The position numbers were made by a program, and so were the translations under genes. The notes beneath the pieces were generated by a model that was given only the letters and a program-made list of their open reading frames with translations, did not search any database and was not told where the DNA came from. A stretch of DNA of 58,933 nt, counting the filler, from Dugesia japonica (taxonomy: Eukaryota): the NCBI GenBank assembly GCA_001938525.1. It is 5 parts of 5 records of this genome, joined end to end, with 100 filler letters (N's around TTAATTAATTAA, not from the genome) between each part and the next. Parts side by side here need not be neighbours in the genome. Positions count along the whole stretch, not along the records: positions 8,917 to 17,134 come from MQRL01300197.1; 4 more parts are not named here. One strand, given 5' to 3'. Positions 7,655 to 56,342 of this stretch are shown one piece after another; within the stretch, counting starts at the first letter, position 1; every line of letters begins with the position of its first letter.

Positions 7655-7906
7655 TTATATATCTCCGTTCCATTTTCTTCTTTGTCTTTTTCTCCACATA
7701 AATTCGCACATATAAGAATCTATCATTCTTTTATGTGTTCCATTATATTTTTTATTACACTCTTTCGCAGTATTCCACACCCTCCCAATATTTTGAGTGT
7801 GTGGAAAATATTTTTGACACTCACTTCGTTTACATATCCAACGATCTTGAATTTCACCCAAGCACAACAACATTGAAACAAATTTTGATATTGTGCAAAA
7901 TTCCAT
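7655..7906 (-). pseudogene. Merlin/ISXO2 (IS1595-family) DDE transposase fragment, internally deleted
   Basis: HTQNIGRVWNTAKECNKKYNGTHKRMIDSYMCEFMWRKR matches the C-terminal HTQxIExxW...G...YLxEFxWR signature; it is joined directly to an N-terminal-type WIC..C segment. Confidence 0.75.
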
Positions 7907-8376
7907 GTTACTGGAGAACTTGTATTACTTGATTATTTGTCATTAACTATTTCGAAAGTGTAATCTGATTCATGGGATTAGAATAATTAAATTATTATCT
8001 TGTTAACTTTCTGCAATCAATAACAATCAATATATTACAATTATAAATCTTTTTTTAATTAAACAAATTTTGAGGTGAAATAACAAACAAGTACCATATC
8101 GAAGCCTATAGGCGGGAATCGAGTTGTTTTCTCCACAAAATAATCTTGGATACCAAATAAAATTGGAAATTACTAATTCATCATAAGTCAAACTTTTCAT
8201 CTGGAAGTTCTAATATTACTGTAATTAAAATTTTGACATTCTATTCGAGTTATTTTTATTAAAACTAAAGATTTTCTTTGATATTGATTTTAGAAATGTT
8301 TTCAGAGTTAAATGAAATTTTAATGTGATCTTTTTGAATACATCTAATTCTGTTTTTACGAAATTTTACTTTACAG

Positions 8377-8476: not shown

Positions 8477-8860
8477 AATTAAAAAGAATTAAATGTAATT
8501 TAATTAATAATGATAAAAATTAATTTGAATATTGATGTGAAAAAAATGTCATACAATATATTAGCAGAAATTAGATTACATTTTATCAAAGAAATTTTAT
8601 GATCTTGACATTTTATTAAAAATAATTTTGGTACCATATAAAAATTTATTTGTTAAATAAACCGTCAATTATTTAAAGAAATATTCGATTTATTAATAAA
8701 TGATTTGTCTATTAAACTTTCACCAATTAAATTATACATATTTAAATAATGTCGGCTTTCTAGTTAACGACAGATTAAATTAACAGATTAAGTGCATATT
8801 AAGTTATCGAAATAACNNNNNNNNNNNNNNNNNNNNNNNNNNNNNNNNNNNNNNNNNNNN

Positions 8861-8872
8861 TTAATTAATTAA
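8861..8872. other. Artificial scaffold spacer TTAATTAATTAA inside N run
   Basis: Identical 12-mer, stop codons in all six frames, centred in ~100-bp N gaps; also at 17179-17190, 32583-32594, 48394-48405. Confidence 0.9.
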
Positions 8873-9339
8873 NNNNNNNNNNNNNNNNNNNNNNNNNNNN
8901 NNNNNNNNNNNNNNNNTAATCAATTCTTCGTTTTCTCGACAGCTTTTTACAACTTTATTTTCTTTTTATTGTTTTATCCTAGATTTTATTTGATATTTCT
9001 TACACTTTTAACTTCAGTTATTATTATTTTATAATCATTTCCTGATCATTTCACAGATAAATATTTCTTTTATTTCGTATTATTTTCTTATTCATTTTCT
9101 TATTAACCTTTAATTTATTTCCTTCACTGTTTTTCATATTTCATAAAAGGCTGTTTCAGCCCAACATGTTTTTATAAAATGTACTTGATTTAATTCACTC
9201 TTGGATGAATTTTTCAGATATTCCAAAGCTATTCCAACAATTGAAAGACATTTGTTTTCTATTTGTTTTGAATTTTCCAATAGAGTTTTTATTATTCTAA
9301 TTTTTTTTGTTTTAAATTTGTACTTTTATTATGTTTTCT

Positions 9340-10249
9340 ACTTTATAGCTTTTATTTTGTGATCATATTTGTATTGATCTGCTGCTGTTTGAGGGATAAC
9401 TGGACTGGACTGACTTGGCGACATCTGAGGTGTGAATGACTGGTAGAGAGTATTGTGAAGGAACTCTAAATATCGTATTTCTTCTTCTTTCTCTTTTAAC
9501 TTCTTCTCCTATACGGATTCTAACTTTTTTCTCTTTTCCGTAAGTTTTTTCACTTAAGCTCGTAGGCCTTCGATCATTTTGTCCTTCTTTTCATCCCATT
9601 CTTTGGCGACCTCTAATTCTTTATTTGTTACAATGTTTTTCTTCATATTTGTCGTAGCTTGCTGCATGATTTGCGGGGCCAATATGGCGTCTAATCTATA
9701 ATTGTCCTTATTTGCCGCTATCAGCCCACTTTGTATATTCATTTCAGTTCACATTTCTGATTTTTGACTCTTTGCACTGTTTAACTTTCCAGCATCTGAT
9801 TTCAACTTGCTTAGTTTCCCTTGCACAACTTTCAGGTATGTCTCGAGATCCTCTACCTGATTTTTCTTTTTATCCGTCTTAACCACTTTATTTTTATTGT
9901 AGTCTCTAAGCATGGCCATCTGTTTCCAATGCTGGGCTTCTTATATAATATTTCTGTTTGGGTGTCGCACATATCTTAGTTCGTTCACTTTTCTTTGATT
10001 TTTCGTCCTCTATCTGGTCCACTTGTTCGTTTATTATATGATTCAAGAGTCGATTTCGTAATTTTAATGATATCGTTTCTGCTTCTACTTTTGGGCCTGT
10101 CGGATTGTGGCCGCCTATTGGTATTGAGTTTTGCTGCAAGGAATTTTCTTTAGGTCTTCCTCTTTAACAGGTTCTCCGGAGTATAATTTGTTTCTCAGAC
10201 GTCCGATCTGATCTCGAAGTATAGTTGGGTTGTTTGACAATTCTTGCAT
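9340..10249 (-). pseudogene. Degenerate ~300-aa Lys/Glu-rich, probably coiled-coil accessory ORF of unknown function
   Basis: Begins MQELSNNPTILRDQIGRLRNKLYSGE at 10249 and continues through track ORFs 9906-10139 and 9554-9742 with frameshifts and stops, to ...EIRYLEFLHNTLYQSFTPQMSPSQSSP. Confidence 0.5.
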
Positions 10250-10364
10250 CTAAATGATAAAGCGATTATAATTTGTTATAATTATTAAATATGATTAACT
10301 ATTAAATCGATTAGTCATTATGAATAAAATGAATGTGGATTAATATTTAATTAATATTTTAATA

Positions 10365-10473
10365 TTTTAATATTTTAATAATTTAATATTTAATTAATAA
10401 CCCGTTTAATAATGCTTATATTTTAATATTTTAATAATTTAATATTTAATTAATAACCCGTTTAATAATGCTT
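10365..10473. repeat. ~56-bp AT-rich tandem duplication within an intron-like spacer (10250-10764)
   Basis: TTTTAATATTTTAATAATTTAATATTTAATTAATAACCCGTTTAATAATGCTT occurs twice. Confidence 0.8.
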
Positions 10474-10996
10474 TGGGAATGCTTAATAACTCAATGCTTG
10501 TTCAATTTATAGTTATTAATTTTATGATTATTAACTCGTTTAATAATTTATTTTAATGATAAATCGATTATCATTATTATACCTTGTTGACCCATAGTTT
10601 TATAATTTAGTTTTCTTGTGTAATTATTAATTCGTTTAATAATGCTTCAACACTCGTTAACTAAAGTGACATGATTATCATTAAATAATTAGATTATCAA
10701 ATCGTTTAATAACACATTATTAATGTATTTAATAATCCGTTAAAATATAATTGAATTTGTTACCTTTACTTTCAGTACTCAACTTTGATTCCTTTTATCT
10801 TCTGGATAATTGAGTTTTTGTATTTCTTATTTGGCACAACTTTGCAATTACTTTCACAATTCATTTTCTCGGTACATGATTTGTTTGGTATTTTTATTTG
10901 AAGATTTCTACTTTTACTGTTTTTGTATTTTTGGACTTCTTATGCTTTTGTTTTTTATAATTTACAACTTTATATATACATTTATAATTTACTTTC

Positions 10997-12373
10997 CTAA
11001 CCCACGTTCCTTATCTCGATGAATATGCTATCATTTTTTACGAAGTTTGATAGCACATTTTTAATTGTTATAAACGTTGGGGATCATGATCCTAAGTTCA
11101 TCTCGCATGTGGGTTTCTGTTAGGAGATCCAGCTTGGTTTGCATTCAAATGTTTCACCATGTCCTTCTGACCACCTGTCGTATCCTGGGGTTATTCTCAT
11201 ACTGAATTTGTTTGAGATCGACCATTTCAACTTGTCATCATATTTTTCTTTCCTTATTATAAAGAAAACATTTATATGGTTTCCTTTTCCTGCGCCATCC
11301 CCATGAGGATAAATTCTTAGAGACGCGAGGTAACCTTCTTTAAATAAGTAAAATGGTGGGCTGGTATACTGTCCATCTTTCTCGTCGGGGAAGGATCTTG
11401 CAATGACCAATTTGGCGAGAAAATCTTCTATTTGCCATATATAATGGCATACAGAATACTTGGCATCTGATAGTGCTGAGGGTAAAGATATAGTGGTTTG
11501 ACTTGAATTTTCTTTTAAAGCACTCCATAATTCGTTTTTAGTTTCGTGTATTTTGCTAGATAAAACGTATATCAATTGAAGGGTATGGTTCTTTAGATTT
11601 TCTTATTATTGGTTTATTCTCTGTTCTAAATTAGAAATGATAGCCTGGATATGTTCTTTTGCTTTGTTGAACATATATTTGTTTACTTTCATTCGGGTTC
11701 CTTTAAATTTACATAGATACGGGCATTCTTTAAGTTCTTTAATGCATGTTGATTTATGAGCACTCACTTTTACTAATTCTTCACAACAATTGTTGGAACA
11801 TTTAACTATGAGTTCCTGGCATACTTGTATTTTAATAGAATTCAGGTGATTCTTCATTAGTTTTCTGAGAATCAATCGGTTGCAATTTTCACATTTTACT
11901 TCTACCATGAGACATGATTCGTTAACACGATTCTCTTTGTCGAGTTTAAATAGTAGTGTTTTACACTTTTCGCACATTATAGGAACTGTAGAGCAGTTCT
12001 TTGTATGTTCTTCCAGATTCATTATCTTTTCTTCTAATTCACATTTTTGGTATGGGCAAGTTCCTTGTAGCTCTGCTACTTCTCTGGTTATTGCTCGGTC
12101 GAGTAGTACTTGAGTAACTTCTTCACATTCGATATTAAAACATTTATTTACGTTCTCTCTAAGGTGTTTACTGATGCATTGATAACAATATCTGCATTCA
12201 CAGCTAATTTACATCTGTTCAAGCATTAATAAATTGCATTTGGTACATTTGAACCGCGTTTCTATTTCTTCTGATGACTCGAGCTTTTGTATTAGTTTTA
12301 CAAAATTATCTACTTTCTTGGCAATAAGTGTGAAATCTGACTGAAGTATACTGATTGGATTTGTTTATTGCAT
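10997..12373 (-). pseudogene. TRAF: Intronless TNF-receptor-associated factor (TRAF2/3/5-like): RING, TRAF zinc fingers, coiled coil, MATH/TRAF-C; about 6 premature stops, no frameshift
   Basis: Single frame of 459 codons. RING CTKC...ISCECRYCYQC...CFNIEC; DRAITREVAELQGTCPYQKC; zinc fingers in ORF 11606-12022; MATH YIWQIEDF...TSPPFY..EGYL..LRIYPHGDGAGKGNHINVFFII.K..YDDKLKW; C-terminus QKPTCEMNLGS..PTFI...FVKNDSIFIEI. Confidence 0.92.
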
Positions 12374-12510
12374 CTGAATATTTACAATTTGTTAATTGTT
12401 TCCATAATTATAATTCTATTTATCAAAGACTACGTAAATATAATAGAATTAAGATTTGTAAATTAGTCAGGCCTATACATTTATTTACAGTTGATTTTTA
12501 TTCTTTCGTT

Positions 12511-13008
12511 TTATTTTGGCAACGTTGAAAAAGATATGAATTGTTCATTCTCTTTACGTCTTTGTTCCTTATTAATCATTATATCTAATAAACTTCGTGT
12601 GCCTCTCGTATCTTCTAGTTCAATCTGCAATGCAACATTGTAATTTGTAATAGTTTGGATTTCTATTTTATTATTATCAATGATGTTTCTCTGCTGTTGG
12701 ATGATATTCAAGTAATAGTGGTGGGTATTGGTTGCTTCCAATAATAGGCGACGAGCTTCTAATAAAGCCGATTCTGTTGAAACTATTAATGAATTTAAAG
12801 TACCACAATGCTGTTCCCACAATTATTCTGTTGTAATATTTTTATACACTGGTACATCTAAGAGATTTATTTCATTTGCTGCTATAACTGGTGGATGAGG
12901 AAATACTATTTGAGGATTAAGTGACCTGAGAAAATAAATTCTGTTACTTATATTTGACTGTACACTGGAATGAAAGACTAGTCGTAGTAATTGATTAGCT
13001 TCTGCCAT
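12511..13008 (-). pseudogene. ~165-aa accessory ORF with C-terminal coiled coil, one premature stop
   Basis: Track ORFs 12823-13008 and 12511-12822 abut in the same frame across one TAA; heptad-like ALLEARRLLLEA...IELEDTR. Confidence 0.6.
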
Positions 13009-13109
13009 CTACAATATTATTTTTTTTATCAATTTTCTATATTATTTTCATAAATACAAACATATTCTGCATTGATATACTAATAATGTTTTGTGCAATA
13101 GGAGTTTAT

Positions 13110-15498
13110 TCATGTGAACTTGTATTGCGGTGGTCCACCAATATCATTTGACCACCTGATTCCGGCCCTATCGAATGGTAGTTGCTAATTATTATTTTCT
13201 AGGTTTCGCATTGCCACAGGAAGTTTTAATCCTTTATGCTGCCCTCTGAGTCGTTTGACTACTAATATTGTTGCTATTATACAGATTATGCAAAACATTA
13301 TTGAGGTTGTTGCTGCTAAAACATTCGCCTTCTAGTTCTCCATCTTTGATGTATCTATTGGAATTGCTGAGCTTATTTTTATTATTCCCGCATTGTAAAT
13401 TGATGCAATTTTCGTAGCGTTTGGTTTAGGCATATTTTTATTATTTGTTCTAGAAACGCTTCTGGTTTTGGCGTTAAAACATTAACTTCGTCTATTTGTG
13501 GTTCTGCTTGTTTTGTTTCTGCTTCTTTTACCGTTGTTATCTTTTTCGTAGTTAGTTTTTTGTGGTTGGTACCTTGGCTGTAGATGACACATTTTTATAT
13601 TTTATTTGTTGGATTGGTATTTGTCTGTTCTTCATTATAACAAGCTGTACGAATAATTTATTGTTAAATAGTACGAATTCTCTAATTAAACTGCCTCTCT
13701 CGAATCCTGAGCGTTCTACTGCTAATCTGTTCGTTGTATTTAACCATTGTTCAAGAATGTGGATCTGTTTGACTATTAAATTATTTGCATCTAGACTAGT
13801 CCACTCTTTTTTCGCAGTTTTGCTTGAATGTCTTATAAATGTGTTTATTTTCGTTTTCATTGTTATGGATTGCTTTTTTAGTTTCATAATATGTGGTTTG
13901 GTATCCTGCATTCGATATCGTTCAACGTTTATTTCTTGTCCAGAGAAATTCAGGACCATCACATATATTTTGTTGTAATTGAATTTTATTAGTTGTACGA
14001 TTATTATTGTTTCTGCCATTGAACATCCATTGGATTTTCCAATCCTGAATGTCTGCTTGGTTGTGGTAGTATACATATTCCGCTACTGTGTCATTATACT
14101 AGTTTCATATTCATTAGTGGACTTATTGTATTTGCCCACTCTTGTAAACCCTTCGTGGTTATCCCAACTGTCGTTGTTGTATTGGAATTTTACTATTTGT
14201 ACTGGTTCTGAAGCTTACAATTTTATATTCAGTCCTTCTTTGTTGTTTTTGAGTAACTTTCTTGTTTGCGGAGGCAATGCTGATCCACCTGCTATTCGAG
14301 TAAGAAACCATCTACCTGTTGATGCTCAGTATTTTTTAGCACGACTAGATTCTCGTTTTAAATGTTTCATTCGTTCTTCTACACAGTGATGGCAAAGTGT
14401 TTTTCAACATTTGGGTGATATTCGGATATTTTCGAGAAATTTATTATCACATATCGTTCAAGCTCCATTTTCTTGTCTGATTTCGGGATAATTAGCTAAT
14501 AGTTCTAAGTCATTTTGATGTTGATCCCATTCTTTGTCTTGCTTTTCAAATGCATGTTTCTTGTTGGATTTACGAATTTGGGTTTGCATTGTATTCGTTT
14601 CTTTAGTGTTTGATGTCACCTATTGAGTCTCTTGATCTTTGACTTTCTTGTTCTTTATTTCCTTGGAGGTTCTCTTTGGTGGCAATAGGGTTTCCATGCT
14701 CACTTTTTTTAATTTTACATTAATAGATCGTTCTATGCGTATTATTATCTCAGTAGTGCTTTTTAGACCGTTTATACATATTTATTTTGCGTATTTCATA
14801 GTAATTGGTAGTGGTTTGTTGATTGTTGTATCATCATAAAGACATCTTTTCTTTTGTTCATTTGCTTCATGAATTCGTTTAATTTCTTCTCTGACTCCAA
14901 ATGCAGAAGTTTCTAACTTACTTCTGACAGTTATTAGACAGTGGTAACACATTTTCTTTAATTATTTTCTGCTTATTGGCAATGTTGACGGTCGTAATTT
15001 TATATAAACTAGACATTTGATCTGCTTTGACTCAATTGGTTTTTCGGTTTTGTTTTCTTTTTTATTCTGTCGATCTTTGGTTTTCTGTTGAGTTATTGTC
15101 TGGTTGAAACCTGTGGTAATTGGAGTTATAATATTCTTTTTGCTGAAGTCGACTTCTCTGTTTTCTTGAAACTTTGACTGCTTAAAGTTCAGATACCATT
15201 CTGCCTGTTTAAATCCAACCGCTCTAATTTCTTGTCATTTTGCTTGCATAAAATTAGCTGCTTTAACTGTTTCTATTTTGTTGTCATTAGACAGTAAGCA
15301 CAATAATTCTTTATACATTCTTTGTTGATAGGAAGTTGTTTAGGTACTTCGCGGTATCTAAAACATTTATTGTCTTTGGATTGGTGTCTGTTTTTATCCT
15401 GTGTACGGTACAGTTCTCTCCATTATAGAGCTACCGTTGACTCTGATACCATTAATTCCTATCAAAAATAAATATTACCTTGGTAAAAATAAAATTAT
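13110..15498 (-). pseudogene. Degenerate env-like type-I membrane protein (~800 codons)
   Basis: Hydrophobic signal-like IILFLPR*YLFLIGING (15498-15448); Cys-containing ectodomain broken by stops and frameshifts (includes ORF 13552-14076); Thr-rich stalk; TM VLAATTSIMFCIICIIATILVV (13322-13257) followed by KRLR; tail ending GGPPQYKFT*. Lies directly 3' of the integrase. Confidence 0.6.
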
Positions 15499-15609
15499 AC
15501 TGTTCTTTGATCTATTAGTATTTTATTTATTCGTGTGACACCACATTTTTTACAAGAGTTTGTTTCTGATTTTTTGCTGACTTGTAACATACAAATTTTG
15601 TTCTGGCTG

Positions 15610-16890
15610 AGATCTGAGATCGTAATCTTTAACTTCTGTTGGTGATTGAATTCGTATTTCTTGTGGTTTTCGTCCACGTTTTAATCCTTTATACGGCAAT
15701 TTTTGCTCATTCTACGAGTCACTCGATGAGTATTGAGTTGGTTCTGTTCCTTCTAATTCTTGTACTTCTGTTTCTTAGATTTACGTGATGATTTGTTCAT
15801 CTGTCACTTTTGTTAACGCTTCCTTTTTGCATCGATTTACATGAATCCATAGTAGTTTCTGGAGTATTTTACCAACTAATCTGACTTTTATATTGGTTTC
15901 TGTGACTGCTAATACTTCGTAAGGCACTTTACCTAGTTTCCTATCCTTTGCTATCGTTCCGATTTCTATTTCCGGAGTATTAACTAATACTCTATCTTCT
16001 TCCTTGAACGCATGGGGTTTCGCTTTCTTGTCATGATAATCTTTGACACTTTCTTGATAATATTTGATATTTAATCGTGCTTCATTCCAGATCTCCTGCA
16101 TTTCCTCTTTCATTCGAATGATATACTCTTCTTGTTCCATATACTATAATATTGGAGGCTGGTATTCCAAATCGATTAGTAAATTACATTTTCTTTCAAA
16201 AAATGGAGTGTATTTTGTAGCTAAGTGTACTTGTGTTCGATAAAAAATAGTACCAAATGTATAAATTGATCCCAGTCTTTCTGTTTTCTGTCGACATAAC
16301 AATATATCTTATTAATTAAGGTTCAGCTAAATCTTTCTACTAGCCCGTCTATTTGTGAATGATATGGTGATGTTCTCAATTTTAATATTGGAAAATATCT
16401 AATGACTTCTGTAAAAATGTCACTCATGAAATTTCTGCCTTGATCAGTTAGGATTTTCTTAGGTGTACAATATCTGCTTCAAATTTACTTTACAAATATT
16501 TCTGCTATCGTTATGGTTTTTTGATTTTTCATTGGAAATGCTTCAGGGTATTTAGATAGATAATCCATACATACAAGAATGTATGAGCTTCCATCTACAG
16601 TTTCGGGTAATGTTCCGACTACGTCCATCGCCATGATCTCCATCGGTTTAGTTAGTATTGGCATTGGTTTTGATGATGCCTTTTCTAAAGTTCCTGTTCC
16701 TCTTCTGGAAGCGACTATTGACAATGTGCTATCCAATCCTTCACATCTTGAGCGATTCTTGACCAATAGTATTTGCGTCTTAATTTGGCTTCGGTTTTTC
16801 TTGCTGACATATGTCCTCCGACGACTTCATTATGGTATTTTTGTAAAATTCGTTCTCTGTGCAATTTTGGTACAATTATCTCCATTCTGT
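15610..16890 (-). pseudogene. Ty3/Gypsy integrase (zinc-binding, DDE core, GPY/F-like C-terminus), disrupted
   Basis: IVPKLHRERILQKYHNEVVGGHMSARKT..LRRKYYW..IAQDVKDWIAHC; MDVVGTLP...YILVCMDYLSKYPEAFP; PKKILTDQGRNF...TSPYH.Q.DGLVERF; ORF 15781-16140 with VPYEV and WIHVNRCK; in-frame YDLRS at 15624-15610. Confidence 0.93.
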
Positions 16891-17404
16891 GCCATTAACC
16901 GTCCCTTTTTAATTGTGTAACGACATCCATTTTCAGTAAGTGTTCTCTCATTTCTGGGTCACATAGTGATATGTATAATATCAACGATATTATTAACAAT
17001 AGCAATGGTGTTATAATCGATAGTAATATTAGCAATAATAATAATTTTAAATAATCTTATTAATATCTGATACTAATAATACTAATAGTAAGAGTATGAA
17101 TAATAATAATATTAGTAATAATAATAAGAAGAAGNNNNNNNNNNNNNNNNNNNNNNNNNNNNNNNNNNNNNNNNNNNNTTAATTAATTAANNNNNNNNNN
17201 NNNNNNNNNNNNNNNNNNNNNNNNNNNNNNNNNNTATTATTCTTTTATTGATTTGCCACAAAAAAATTCCCCGAATCAATCTGTCTATTTAATTTACCTC
17301 ACACCGACCACTGGCTTAGATTATAGATTGTTAAATGAAGTTGCAGAAAGACCAATTTTTCCTATTCCAAACAATAAAGATTTAGACGATCTCATCAAGA
17401 ATAT

Positions 17405-46076: not shown

Positions 46077-48449
46077 AGATTCTTCACAAAAAATTCTTTT
46101 TATATTTCATCTTTGACTCAGCAGTGATAAGAAGGTTTAAAACACGCCAAAAATAATATTTAAACGTAACAGCTGCAATATCATTTCAATCATTCAAAAA
46201 ATACTATTTAAGATTGTTTTAAATTAGAGTTAAATTTTTTGCCATCTCAGTTGAAATTTTTCTATAAAATATTTTTTTAATTTAAATTAATTAAAAAATG
46301 ATAGAATTAAATTATTAAAAACTATCAGTAATAATTGTTAACTTTTTATTTATTTTTTTAAAATCAAACTTTTAAATAGTGAAATTTTATAAATATTTAA
46401 CTACATTTAATTTATTATTTTTAAAATAATTTAAAATAATTTGTTTTTTAAATTTCTAATTAATTTTTAAATTTATTTAGAAAAGAAAGGAATACAAATT
46501 TTTAATTTTTTAAAAAAATAATTGGTTTATCTAAAATTTATTAGAAGATTTGTTTTAAAATTGTAAATAAGGTAATTAAATTAAATAAATGATTTAACAA
46601 AGTAATTAATACACTTAAATTTTCTTGCAATAATTTATATTTAGAAATAAATTAAAAAATTTTAAAAATTATGTAAATTTCAGTTGAGATGCAAATTATT
46701 TGGTTTTGTTTAATTTGATTTAAAAAAACAAATATTTGTTCTTTGTTTTATAATATATTTTAAATTGAAACGTCTACTCTTTTAAATTCAACAATGAGTG
46801 TCTTAGACTCATCTAACATTATTTAATATACTCTGATTCTATAACATCGCGATATTCAAACAATATTTAATAATATCACTATTGAATAAAAAATAAAACT
46901 TTGATTGTCACTTGAGTTCNNNNNNNCTATCAATTTTTACGATTTATTTTCAATTACGATGAAATATATCTGATCAATATTATAAATAACAAACACATTC
47001 AATCTACAAACTGAGAAATACAAATAATAAAATCAACGTTTCATCCTTTTGATGAAAAATCCTTTTAAAAAATTACCAATTAGATATTTTATATTTGAAA
47101 AAAAAAATTTCAATTCCAGTAATGAAAAATTAAATCAATAAATCAATTCGAAAACAACAGTTAATAATAACAATAATTATATCAGGATAGCCTGATTGAA
47201 TCAAAATATAATATCTGCGCGTGTTCCAGATATTTGATTATATTTATATAGCGGTAAAAATACCTCAACGTTATGTAAGTTAATTTTTTCAAACAATAAA
47301 ATCGAAAAACATTTTGTGTTTAAAATAAATATTTAAGAGTGCTCTTAACATATTTGTTTTTTTAATTTGCTTACATAAAAACAAAATTGAAATTTCTTTT
47401 TGGTTTTTGTTGAGATATAAATTTGAAATTAAATGTTATAAACAAAAACAGGTGCAATCAATCAATTCAGAGAGTATTTACATATAGGAAATCGATTTAA
47501 TGAATATTGCCGGTGATCATAGTAATAGAAGGAAAGGAATCAATATAATGAATAACAGAAAGTCGATATACTAAATATTGAATTGTTGTTTATCGTAGAT
47601 AGTTTCTGGATCAGGACGAATCTAAAAGAATTTGAAATAGTCTCTTTTTGAGTCCAAATAGTCTTTTGCGGTTATCATCGGGAATCTTCTGAATATTCAG
47701 TATTTTGTGGTGCATGCTTATAACCATATTTTAATTTAATGTATATTGTATTATATTTTATGATTTACTCGATCTCAACGAAATTGTTTTAATAATAAAG
47801 TCAACAATACACGAGTCTGGGATATATAAATTTAATATATGGGTAATATTTGGTGATCCTGTGTAATATTAATGTTTATTATAGATAGAATGATAAAATA
47901 AACATATTTTATAGCTATGTTTTTCAAATTTTTAAAAGTATTTTTGGAGGCACAGTCGGGATCTACTAGATTTGAAAGGAAATGAAGGAATGAAAATAGA
48001 GAATACCCGGATTTATTTGGAAGAAAATGCAATATCTGGAATAATTTGAATAGGAAATGCTAGAAGGAAAATGAAATTAAACCAAATTACAAGATGCAAA
48101 GAGAAGAAAGCAAACTGAAAAGGTTCTAGAAATAGTTCTAGTTTTACTGAAAAAGCTTGCAAGTTCCAATAATTGACTTAGTGATCGAATTATTTGTTAT
48201 TATTAAATCATCGATCCGTTTGTTGAATAATGTTGGAATACTAGCTATTCGAAACCATCATTATTAATTTGTCACTGATTGTTAGCCTGTTTTGAAGATC
48301 AAGTTATTGGAGAGAAAATTTTATTAATATTTTATTTTATTTGAAAATGNNNNNNNNNNNNNNNNNNNNNNNNNNNNNNNNNNNNNNNNNNNNTTAATTA
48401 ATTAANNNNNNNNNNNNNNNNNNNNNNNNNNNNNNNNNNNNNNNNNNNN

Positions 48450-51751: not shown

Positions 51752-52754
51752 GGGTTAATTACAAAATAACCCACTTGAAAAATTTTATAACCCACATTTA
51801 AGTTTTTTTTACAAAAATAACCCACAATCAAANNTTTTTTTATGAAAATAACCTACTTGAAAAAATATATGACTTAAATTAAACTCAATATTGACATTGG
51901 CTTCAAAAGTAATATAATTTTAAGACAATAAAAATATAAAAGATTTGTTATGACAGTTTTAAAATAAAATAAAGATAAAAAATTAATTTTTATTTTTATT
52001 TCTTATTTTCCGGGCACTTATTCTTATTATGTCCTTGTTTTCTGCAAATACTGCATTTATTAGCCTTTAATAAAGCGACTTCTCCAGCAGATTTCTTCCT
52101 TTTGGATTTCTTAGGACGTCCAGCACGATTAGTTTTATAAGCATTAACAACATTACATTTTAAAATCATATCTGGATCGATATATTTCATAGTATTTGCA
52201 TATAAAAGTTTTAATGAGTTCAGAGCTCTTTTGGGGCTAATAAAAATTTTCTTATCAAATCCATTAATCATTATTGCCGCCGCATATGCGTGTTTACATG
52301 GAAATATTTCAATCCAGCTATCATTCCACAACTGCAACTAAGTTTATTAAAATCCACTATTCTATAAATTGTTGATGTACTCGTACTAGTAACTTCAAAC
52401 ACATTACCAATGGATTTAGATGCAGCGTTTAAGAATTTGCCTCGTGAAGCAGATAACAAGGACATAATAAGAATAAGTGCCCGGAAAATAAGAAATAAAA
52501 ATCAAAAATTTTTTTTATCTGTATTTTATTTTAAAACTGTCATTAATATATCTTTTATAATTTTATTGTCTTAAAATTATAATACTTTTGAAGCCAATGT
52601 TTAATTGAGTTTAATTTTGAAGTTTAATTTAAGTCATATGTTTTTTCAAGTAGGTTATTTTCATAAATAAAATTTGATTGTGGGTTATTTTTGTAAAAAA
52701 AACTTAAATGTGGGTTTTAAAATTTTTTAAGTGGGTTATTTTTGTAATTAACTC
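51752..52754 (-). mobile_element. MULE/Mutator-like element, 1003 bp, ~290-bp inverted arms, 9-bp TSD
   Basis: Arms 51752-~52037 and ~52457-52754; TSD TTAATTTTA / TTAACTTTA (8 of 9); repeated AACCCAC motifs in the arms. Confidence 0.9.
51996..52456 (-). pseudogene. MULE transposase C-terminal fragment (SWIM finger and CCHC knuckle)
   Basis: YRIVDFNKLSCSCG / FPCKHAYAA (SWIM, frameshifted), GRPKKSKRKKS, CSICRKQGHNKNKCP. Confidence 0.88.
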
Positions 52755-54323: not shown

Positions 54324-56342
54324 TTTATGGGGTATTATTAACTAAATTAATAAGTCAGTTGTTTAAATATTATAATAAATCTTTACTTAACATTTGAATT
54401 CTTATTACTGTATTCTGAAATCCGATGTTGAAGATAGAATAACTGGCGACTACGCCAAAAATATTAATAACAAGATATCAAGAGAAAAAATTAATTATTG
54501 ATTCACTTTCGAAGAAACCACAAGACTTGTTAAGTTTCAATNTTCGAAAATATGATGNACNAAATTTTGAAGAAGCTACAAAATAGATTACAGATATTGA
54601 ANAATGGCTGCCAGTAAATAATTTGTATTTAATGAGTGCATTCCATTTATTACTATCTGATGAGACTGTTGGTTTATAGAAAGATTTTACAACCAATTCC
54701 ACAACAAAAGATTAAGCAAAATCTTGGTTTATCGATACATCCACAATATAAAAATTCGATTTCAGATATGTTTGTCGAATTAGCTGGAATTAAGCAACAA
54801 GATAATGAAAGATTTACAACGTTCAAGATAAAACCTCGTTTGGATATTTTTATCCAGAATTAAATCGTGTCGAAATAAGAAATTATGTTATTTCAAAACG
54901 ATCAAAAGGTTCTGCTTTAGAAGATAAACTAATTTAAAAACCGAAAATGAGCATTGAAGAACAAAATTCAGTTGAATCAATTACAAAATTCAGTCATAAT
55001 TCTGAGAGAAATTCGGGAAGTAATTTTTCATCTGGACTTATAATTTCTAATAGAAATTTTGAAATATTTAATAATAGAAATAACTAGAACAATGAAAATT
55101 CAAGATATCAACCATCAGTTTCAATGAAGCATATTACAAGAAAATTGTATAATAAATACAATGGATTGCACAACCAAAAGATGAAATTTTAAAACCAGGT
55201 CAATGTTATTGTTGTGAAGAAAGAGATCATTTAGGTTTTGAATGTCCATTAAAGAACAAGTGTTTGATATGTGAAAAAGAAGAACATTTATTCAGAAATT
55301 GTCACTTATTGAATAATCGGAATAGGAATTTTAATAAGCCTATATTATGTATTTATGATGAAAATAATGAAGAGTATTGTGAAGATGAAATAGTAAATCA
55401 TGATATTGAAGAACAAAAAAACCAGAACAACCCTGTTACTTACATTTCGTACGTGTGGTTGAATCAATAAATGATCCTGTAAATCAAAATGATATGAAGA
55501 ATAATGCGATGAACCAGACGAGTGATGGAAGGCAGTGGAGTAGTGTGGAAGTTGAAAATGTTGCAATTAAAATGTTGTCGGACTCAGGAGCTGCGATAAA
55601 TAAAAATTGTGAATAAAAAGCGTTGGGAGAAGATTGGAAAACCGTATTTATTAGATACGAATATTATGCTCAGTGGTGTATTTTCTAGAATGAGTGAAAA
55701 GCCGTTGGGATCTGTGTCAGTAAATGTGAGATGGAACGTTTAGATTCGATTAGTAAATATATTAATATTAATTTTTCTAAATTTCATTGGTGGAATAGAC
55801 ATAATGAAGAGTTTTGGAATAAAACTAGTAGAAATAAACAATATTGATACTTCTATAATCAAAAACAATCATTCAGATACAGAAAGAATCAGAATTGCCT
55901 TAGAATATTTCAATAATCAAAACAACAATACATTGAAAAATTTGATAAAAATCTATGGAAACATTTTTATAGATTGAAATTCGATCTGGGTCATACAACA
56001 TTGATAAAGCATGAAATAAAAGTAAATAGTGCACCAGTACTGATACAACCCAGATGTCAACCAATGCACTTAGAATCAAAAATCGACGAACTAGTAGAAA
56101 ATATAATCAGAAAGAAAAATGATTTTCAATATGAAGGACTATTTCAGATAATTAGATATATTTATCCTCATCAAGTGGAATTCAGATGGAATTAAACAAC
56201 GAAGAATAAAATGGTTAAAGAAGTGGACAGTTTCTTAAAGAAAGGGAAAGTTATGGCGTATTATTAATTAAAATATTATTTAACTATTTATATTATAATA
56301 AATCTTTGCTAAGTGTGTTACATTTGAATTCTTATTAATGTA
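54324..56342 (+). mobile_element. Internally deleted Ty3/Gypsy LTR retrotransposon (~2 kb) with short LTRs
   Basis: Diverged direct repeats TTATGG.GTATTATTAA...TATTATAATAAATCTTT...ACATTTGAATTCTTATTA.TGTA at ~54325 and ~56251; PBS-like TGGCGAC at 54444; PPT AAAGAAAGGGAAAG before 56251. Confidence 0.8.
54500..56195 (+). pseudogene. Degenerate gag-protease-RT start fused to integrase tail
   Basis: Two CCHC knuckles CYCCEERDHLGFEC and CLICEKEEHLFRNC (~55204-55302); protease LSDSGAAIN (~55575); DLGHTTLIKHEIKVNSAPV.IQPR (pre-RT) running into YEGLFQII (GPF-like). Confidence 0.8.

Follow-up and report, generated by a model that had tools for sequence, protein, structure and literature searches.

Three minus-strand ORFs at the downstream end of a decayed, likely Ty3/gypsy element each begin at an ATG placed directly after a YAG trinucleotide (sites at 13008, 12373, and 10249), as a first-pass annotation had stated. 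This YAG/ATG geometry is a real, non-random feature. The three sites are likely splice acceptors, judging from the sequence around them. The best reading, held tentatively and with somewhat less than even confidence, is that they would be used in alternative cis-splicing from one upstream donor of the element.

Element layout

The window (the whole stretch of 58,933 nucleotides analysed, along which all positions are counted) is AT-rich, with GC mostly 0.16-0.30, and contains merely 5 ATG-started ORFs of at least 100 aa. The three-ORF cassette sits in an 8.2-kb contig (8917-17134) with N gaps on both sides. On the minus strand, from about 16960 to 9340, the sequence is A-rich and coding GC is 0.31-0.37, compared with about 0.2 in the flanks. 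The order along this strand is integrase, broken membrane-protein ORF (15546-13185), ORF A, TRAF, and ORF C. The features are as follows:

15781-16960, minus strand: retroviral-type integrase, broken by stops and frameshifts (Pfam Integrase_H2C2 PF17921, E 2.5e-16; rve PF00665, E 7.3e-11)
13185-15546, minus strand: broken membrane-protein ORF, ~770 codons, at the env position
15478-15494, minus strand: candidate fourth acceptor, a T-rich tract and AAG/G (AG at 15480-15479), before a hydrophobic signal-peptide-like stretch
13009-13184, minus strand: spacer 1, 176 nt, acceptor-like TAG at its end
13008, minus strand: junction of ORF A, TTGTAG/ATG
12511-13008, minus strand: ORF A, 165 codons, 1 internal stop, no known family
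12374-12510, minus strand: spacer 2, 137 nt, acceptor-like CAG at its end
12373, minus strand: junction of the TRAF gene, ATTCAG/ATG
10997-12373, minus strand: TRAF-type gene, intronless, 458 codons, 6 internal stops (degenerate RING, TRAF zinc fingers, linker, MATH)
10250-10996, minus strand: spacer 3, 747 nt, AT-rich, with short internal duplications and an acceptor-like TAG at its end
10249, minus strand: junction of ORF C, ATTTAG/ATG
9338-10249, minus strand: ORF C, ~300 codons in three frame pieces, with two frame changes and stops

Nine coding pieces have in common a third-position A of 0.40-0.54, and in eight of them stops occur at 0.006-0.016 per codon (the ninth has 0 in 43 codons). 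Strand, third-position A, stop density, and GC fit the view that the pieces belong to one element decaying as a unit. That unit is likely a Ty3/gypsy LTR element whose reverse transcriptase (RT), gag, and both LTRs would lie beyond the gaps. Pfam detects both an H2C2 zinc finger and a DDE core in the integrase. Upstream of the zinc-binding region no recognisable coding sequence was found up to an AT microsatellite and the N gap at 17135. No LTR pair is present among the largest 20 of at least 60 repeat families; the element ends fall in gaps. Among viral contigs, none of 18 pattern matches to the integrase core was confirmed as a relative, and Rfam gave 0 matches in 10500-58933. A search of sequencing runs listed no RNA run; small shares (at most 0.14) were seen for 9 of 24 rows, which speaks neither for nor against expression or relatives. 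All coding regions of the cassette are intronless. Since none of the three accessory ORFs is intact in this copy, spliced expression would concern the active family and not this insertion.

The accessory ORFs and the membrane-protein ORF

ORF A has one homolog among 68 candidates, P0004, a 165-aa protein identical at 126/165 positions (76%) over the full length. It has no Pfam match, and its best atlas hit (score 0.88) is unnamed and not usable. When loci of P0004 relatives were sought, 0/5 viral-contig and 0/94 metagenome-contig pattern matches were confirmed.

The gene at 12373-10997 belongs to the TRAF family, with a RING, TRAF zinc fingers, and a C-terminal MATH domain. In Pfam the TRAF-mep_MATH match is strong (E 2e-21), and zf-TRAF and RING are weak. 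The sole match at E<=1e-20 among 2493 candidates, P0005, aligns over the full length with 232/452 identical residues (51%). Its top solved-structure matches are TRAF2, then TRAF5/3; residues 36-165 resemble the N-termini of TRAF6/5 and residues 302-444 resemble TRAF-C domains. None of 48 candidate P0005 loci in metagenome contigs was confirmed. A recoded genetic code was rejected because the 6 TRAF stops align with at least 5 different residues in the homolog.

The C-terminal part of ORF C is K/E-rich and probably forms a coiled coil. No homologs of this piece were found among 100 candidates, and for ORF C the sole Pfam match is sub-threshold. Past ORF C, about 58 open codons on the minus strand (9130-9305) possibly represent another decayed small ORF. 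The ENA contigs of the homologs are small (1078, 2018, and 712 nt) and have no bearing on separate mRNAs.

The membrane-protein ORF contains an N-terminal hydrophobic stretch (KD 1.62 at 15501) and a C-terminal transmembrane helix (KD 2.61 at 13313). It is type I membrane-like; CxxC motifs recur in it, and basic residues cluster near 14340. It has no Pfam match, and the searches run gave no F- or gB-type homology. Among 1.84 billion proteins searched, the homolog found was 1 unnamed fragment (P0007, 67% identity), for which the atlas scores (0.76) were uninformative. The position, hydrophobic N-terminus, and transmembrane helix of the ORF fit an env-like protein, and env is a candidate identity.

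A possible fourth acceptor, absent from the first-pass annotation, precedes the hydrophobic stretch at 15479. The T fraction is 0.5 in the last 20 nt, compared with 0.2 in the two preceding bins. In the frame of the hydrophobic stretch, the G that follows the AG occupies the third codon position, the phase that a donor exon ending in AU would need. Since this phase match is one-in-three and the A at -3 fails the YAG filter, the site is a lead only. The membrane-protein ORF could also begin, unspliced, at an in-frame ATG at 15543.

Start-site geometry

On the minus strand of the gap-bounded contig, YAG precedes 13/169 ATGs, or 10/166 (6%) when the three sites are left out. In the whole window the pattern is found at 13/892 plus-strand and 27/950 minus-strand ATGs, and among internal in-frame ATGs of the ORF pieces at 2/44. 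The less specific AG/ATG occurs at 18/169 ATGs on the minus strand of the contig. The probability of three out of three by chance is therefore 2.2e-4 when the 6% rate, the most conservative one, is taken and 1e-5 when it is computed from the local composition upstream, with the caveat that n=3 and that the pattern was selected post hoc from the same data. This supports the earlier claim that the coincidence is improbable, and with the membrane-protein ORF scored as a miss the chance is still ~9e-4.

Each site also has a T at -5, and the stretches free of another AG measure 26, 40, and 47 nt. Under thresholds set by the analyst (Y at -3, T at -5, and a zone of at least 18 nt), 17/573 element-strand AGs qualify, the three sites included. 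Long AG-free zones arise more readily in the spacers, where AG is scarcer (0.025-0.04 per base).

The three ATGs are genuine coding starts. GC rises across each of them, from 0.16, 0.19, and 0.17 to 0.32, 0.29, and 0.40, respectively, and the starts were thus not picked for their AG. The natural homologs of ORF A and TRAF (with homolog starts as predicted) open at the same Met.

Other signals that the first-pass annotation had read upstream of the junctions fare less well. The tracts are AT-rich, as described, but not pyrimidine-rich: the T fraction at -22 to -4 is 0.26, 0.42, and 0.53, values which are ordinary for this genome. The branch-like motif is of no use as evidence, as YTRAY, TAAC, or TGAT is found in 46% of random 30-nt windows of the genome. 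The flatworm acceptor motif UUNYAG is matched in full at 1/3 sites. The proposal of separate spliced mRNAs consequently keeps the geometry, the element context, and the precedent of spliced gypsy env in its favour and loses the branch motif; splicing itself is inferred.

Proposed splicing from one upstream donor and its alternatives

The spacers are non-coding and 137-747 nt long, so the 3' ORFs need some route to translation. Under the cis-splicing reading, a donor near the 5' end of the element would, in the active family, be joined in cis to one of the acceptors at 15479 (membrane-protein ORF), 13009, 12374, and 10250. One subgenomic mRNA would result per accessory gene, and the unspliced RNA would be both genome and gag-pol message. 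With the ATG at base +1, no spliced message would contain upstream out-of-frame starts, and a single LTR 3' end could serve all messages. The target of the TRAF protein may be NF-kB or cell-death signalling in the host, as has been suggested for the cargo of Burro.

Economy favours cis-splicing to several acceptors in a row over the other readings, although our confidence in it stops a little short of even. Its economy comes from four points: gypsy env is made in this way, its acceptor is conserved, one LTR 3' end suffices, and a donor beats a spliced leader (SL). According to passages of PMC12992720, errantivirus env is translated from a spliced subgenomic RNA and in the springer subclade the exon ends in an AU dinucleotide; an excerpt of PMC13669377 describes the acceptor as the conserved part. 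That an upstream cis donor wins an acceptor from a spliced leader is stated in a section of PMC4558846 that cites Hastings 2005. Against cis-splicing, the contig is without a donor or LTRs, the pyrimidine tracts are weak, and the branch motifs are at chance level. The zero spacing between AG and ATG is not required by cis-splicing and counts against it.

The zero spacing is better explained if the sites are trans-splice acceptors, at which the 3' cassette would be resolved in operon-like fashion into monocistronic, SL-capped mRNAs. In flatworms the SL ends in AUG and acceptors follow the motif UUNYAG, according to parts of PMC12582326, where it is also suggested that in parasitic flatworms retrotransposon transcripts may receive an SL. 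With such a leader, an acceptor directly before the ATG would keep the leader AUG in frame. Spacers 1 and 2 (176 and 137 nt) come close to the operon spacing of Macrostomum (~100 bp in a portion of PMC8629364), whereas spacer 3 has 747 nt. The availability of an SL in the host is an assumption, and just one of the three sites has the complete motif. AATAAA is at chance level in the spacers (0.58 per 150 nt) and was rejected as a sign of internal 3' ends on account of this background rate. Genomic RNA would moreover be severed at any internal 3' end, and a donor upstream should prevail over the leader. Trans-splicing is unlikely overall, if worth serious attention. Its full form, in which an enveloped gypsy-type element in a flatworm-like host has its orphan/TRAF/coiled-coil cassette cut by an SL, with each acceptor at the ATG and the leader AUG in frame, is likewise unlikely, and a little more doubtful.

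The AG may also be no splice site at all but chance or start context, with the ORFs reached by reinitiation, internal entry, or internal promoters and the 5' ends unspliced. The small, post hoc sample, the frequency of AG/ATG on the strand (18/169), and the weak tracts all agree with this, and in 2/3 sites the TAG doubles as an in-frame stop bounding the ORF. Long reads described in passages of PMC11952523 have MDG1-group accessory sORFs expressed without splicing, so extra ORFs do not imply splicing. Such an account has to accept a chance of 2e-4 to 1e-5 for three out of three, in addition to the shared T at -5 and the AG-free zones, and we consider it quite improbable. The spacers appear too long for simple stop-restart coupling, which was rejected since they are non-coding over 137-747 nt.

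Gypsy-like integrases occur in DNA elements too. Introns can be kept by a captured host cluster or by an element that moves as DNA (Ginger- or Polinton-like), and the acceptors might then be local: a separate promoter and a short intron in the 5'UTR could belong to each gene, or an intron could start just past the upstream stop. Donor-like GT-A hexamers are present in each spacer (13080 and 13057; 12488; 10992), the one at 10992 directly after the TRAF stop, and the contig shows no RT or LTRs. These hexamers are common in AT-rich DNA, however, and 4 are found in the integrase-membrane spacer as well. No coding region contains an intron, retrotransposition would remove a constitutive intron, and the integrase appears to begin as if mid-polyprotein, with no start of its own. 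Local introns are the least probable of these explanations, and very unlikely.

Use of the acceptors in cis would mean that an invertebrate element whose cargo includes a full-length TRAF expresses its genes in the manner of complex retroviruses. Use of a spliced leader would instead give retroelements a polycistronic strategy of a new kind: SL trans-splicing would be exploited by a virus-like element to express its genes, and the element would be a vehicle for the spread of a TRAF gene. Either would offer a possible way in which the large expansion of TRAF genes described for planarians (a section of PMC6109357) came about, if the host is a planarian. A planarian host is a tentative guess based on AT content (>70% in part of PMC11410931) and on the precedent of TRAF in Burro. 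In the searched literature, as far as the sources extended, no description was found of how downstream cargo is expressed in giant invertebrate gypsy elements.

Other features in the window

Remnants of other elements were also observed. A broken P-loop ATPase (GPSGSGKT) at 34772-35376 on the minus strand resembles Maverick/Polinton packaging ATPases. SWIM-like and CCHC motifs at 51996-52337 (minus strand) are likely a MULE transposase remnant, and a fragment at 7655-7924 (minus strand) resembles the C-terminus of an ISXO2/Merlin-like transposase. A second decayed gypsy-like element lies at 55156-56195 on the plus strand, opposite to the first, with two CCHC zinc knuckles and a piece like an RT N-terminus. 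The interval 69-757 has tandem repeats of 133 nt and 42 nt with the palindrome GTTGCCATGGTAAC. The gaps at 8817-8916, 17135-17234, 32539-32638, and 48350-48449 each consist of 44 N, a 12-nt TTAA linker, and 44 N. Several apparent inverted repeats in the window were rejected as artefacts of this padding (TTAA linkers) and are not genomic.

Comparison with known systems

TRAF-carrying gypsy elements (Burro) and spliced env are already known; a row of three 3' genes with a putative acceptor for each was not found in the literature searched. Complex retroviruses and foamy-like fish ERVs carry several accessory genes 3' of env, each with its own alternatively spliced mRNA. To our knowledge, accessory ATGs of complex retroviruses are not as a rule placed at base +1 of the acceptor, and these viruses are vertebrate Retroviridae. 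Foamy-like fish ERVs with 3' accessory ORFs are mentioned in PMC6431247. In the passages searched, drawn from papers other than the two main Burro ones, there was neither a gypsy element in which several 3' accessory genes have an acceptor each nor an SL-resolved retroelement cassette. The portion of PMC8532177 covered makes no mention of TRAF.

Insect errantiviruses (gypsy, ZAM, springer, idefix), as far as described in passages of PMC12992720 and PMC13669377, have a membrane-protein ORF after pol, as here, and produce env from a spliced subgenomic RNA; the phase of the AU donor agrees with the candidate site at 15479. For these viruses a single spliced env message is described and no row of further acceptors. 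Platyhelminth errantiviruses are reported, in passages of PMC13524379, to be arranged GAG-ENV-POL with a gB-type env, an order unlike the present one. SL-resolved operons of flatworms and nematodes share the head-to-tail genes, the short AT-rich spacers, and an acceptor just before the start, but these are host chromosomal genes and not retroelement cargo, and SL addition is here a proposal (sections of PMC8629364 and PMC12582326).

The closest likeness in cargo is with Burro/GYPSM1, giant gypsy elements of dugesiid planarians which carry MATH/TRAF and coiled-coil (Smc-like) cargo, are found as decaying copies, and in one species have the MATH/TRAF domain in a separate upstream accessory ORF (PMC6431247). 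MATH/TRAF cargo in a gypsy-type element, a Burro feature, is present here as well. Burro elements are further marked by a giant gag-env-pol polyprotein and by BIR, ankyrin, and BCL2 cargo; BIR and ankyrin had no Pfam match in the pieces scanned here. Burro1 cargo reportedly aids regeneration (second-hand, in an excerpt of PMC13465017). In Burro, env lies in frame between gag and pol, and MATH is in ORF1 or upstream of ORF1 (PMC6431247). Here the integrase and a separate membrane-protein ORF are followed on the 3' side by a full RING-zinc finger-MATH gene and two further ORFs, an arrangement unlike the one described for Burro.
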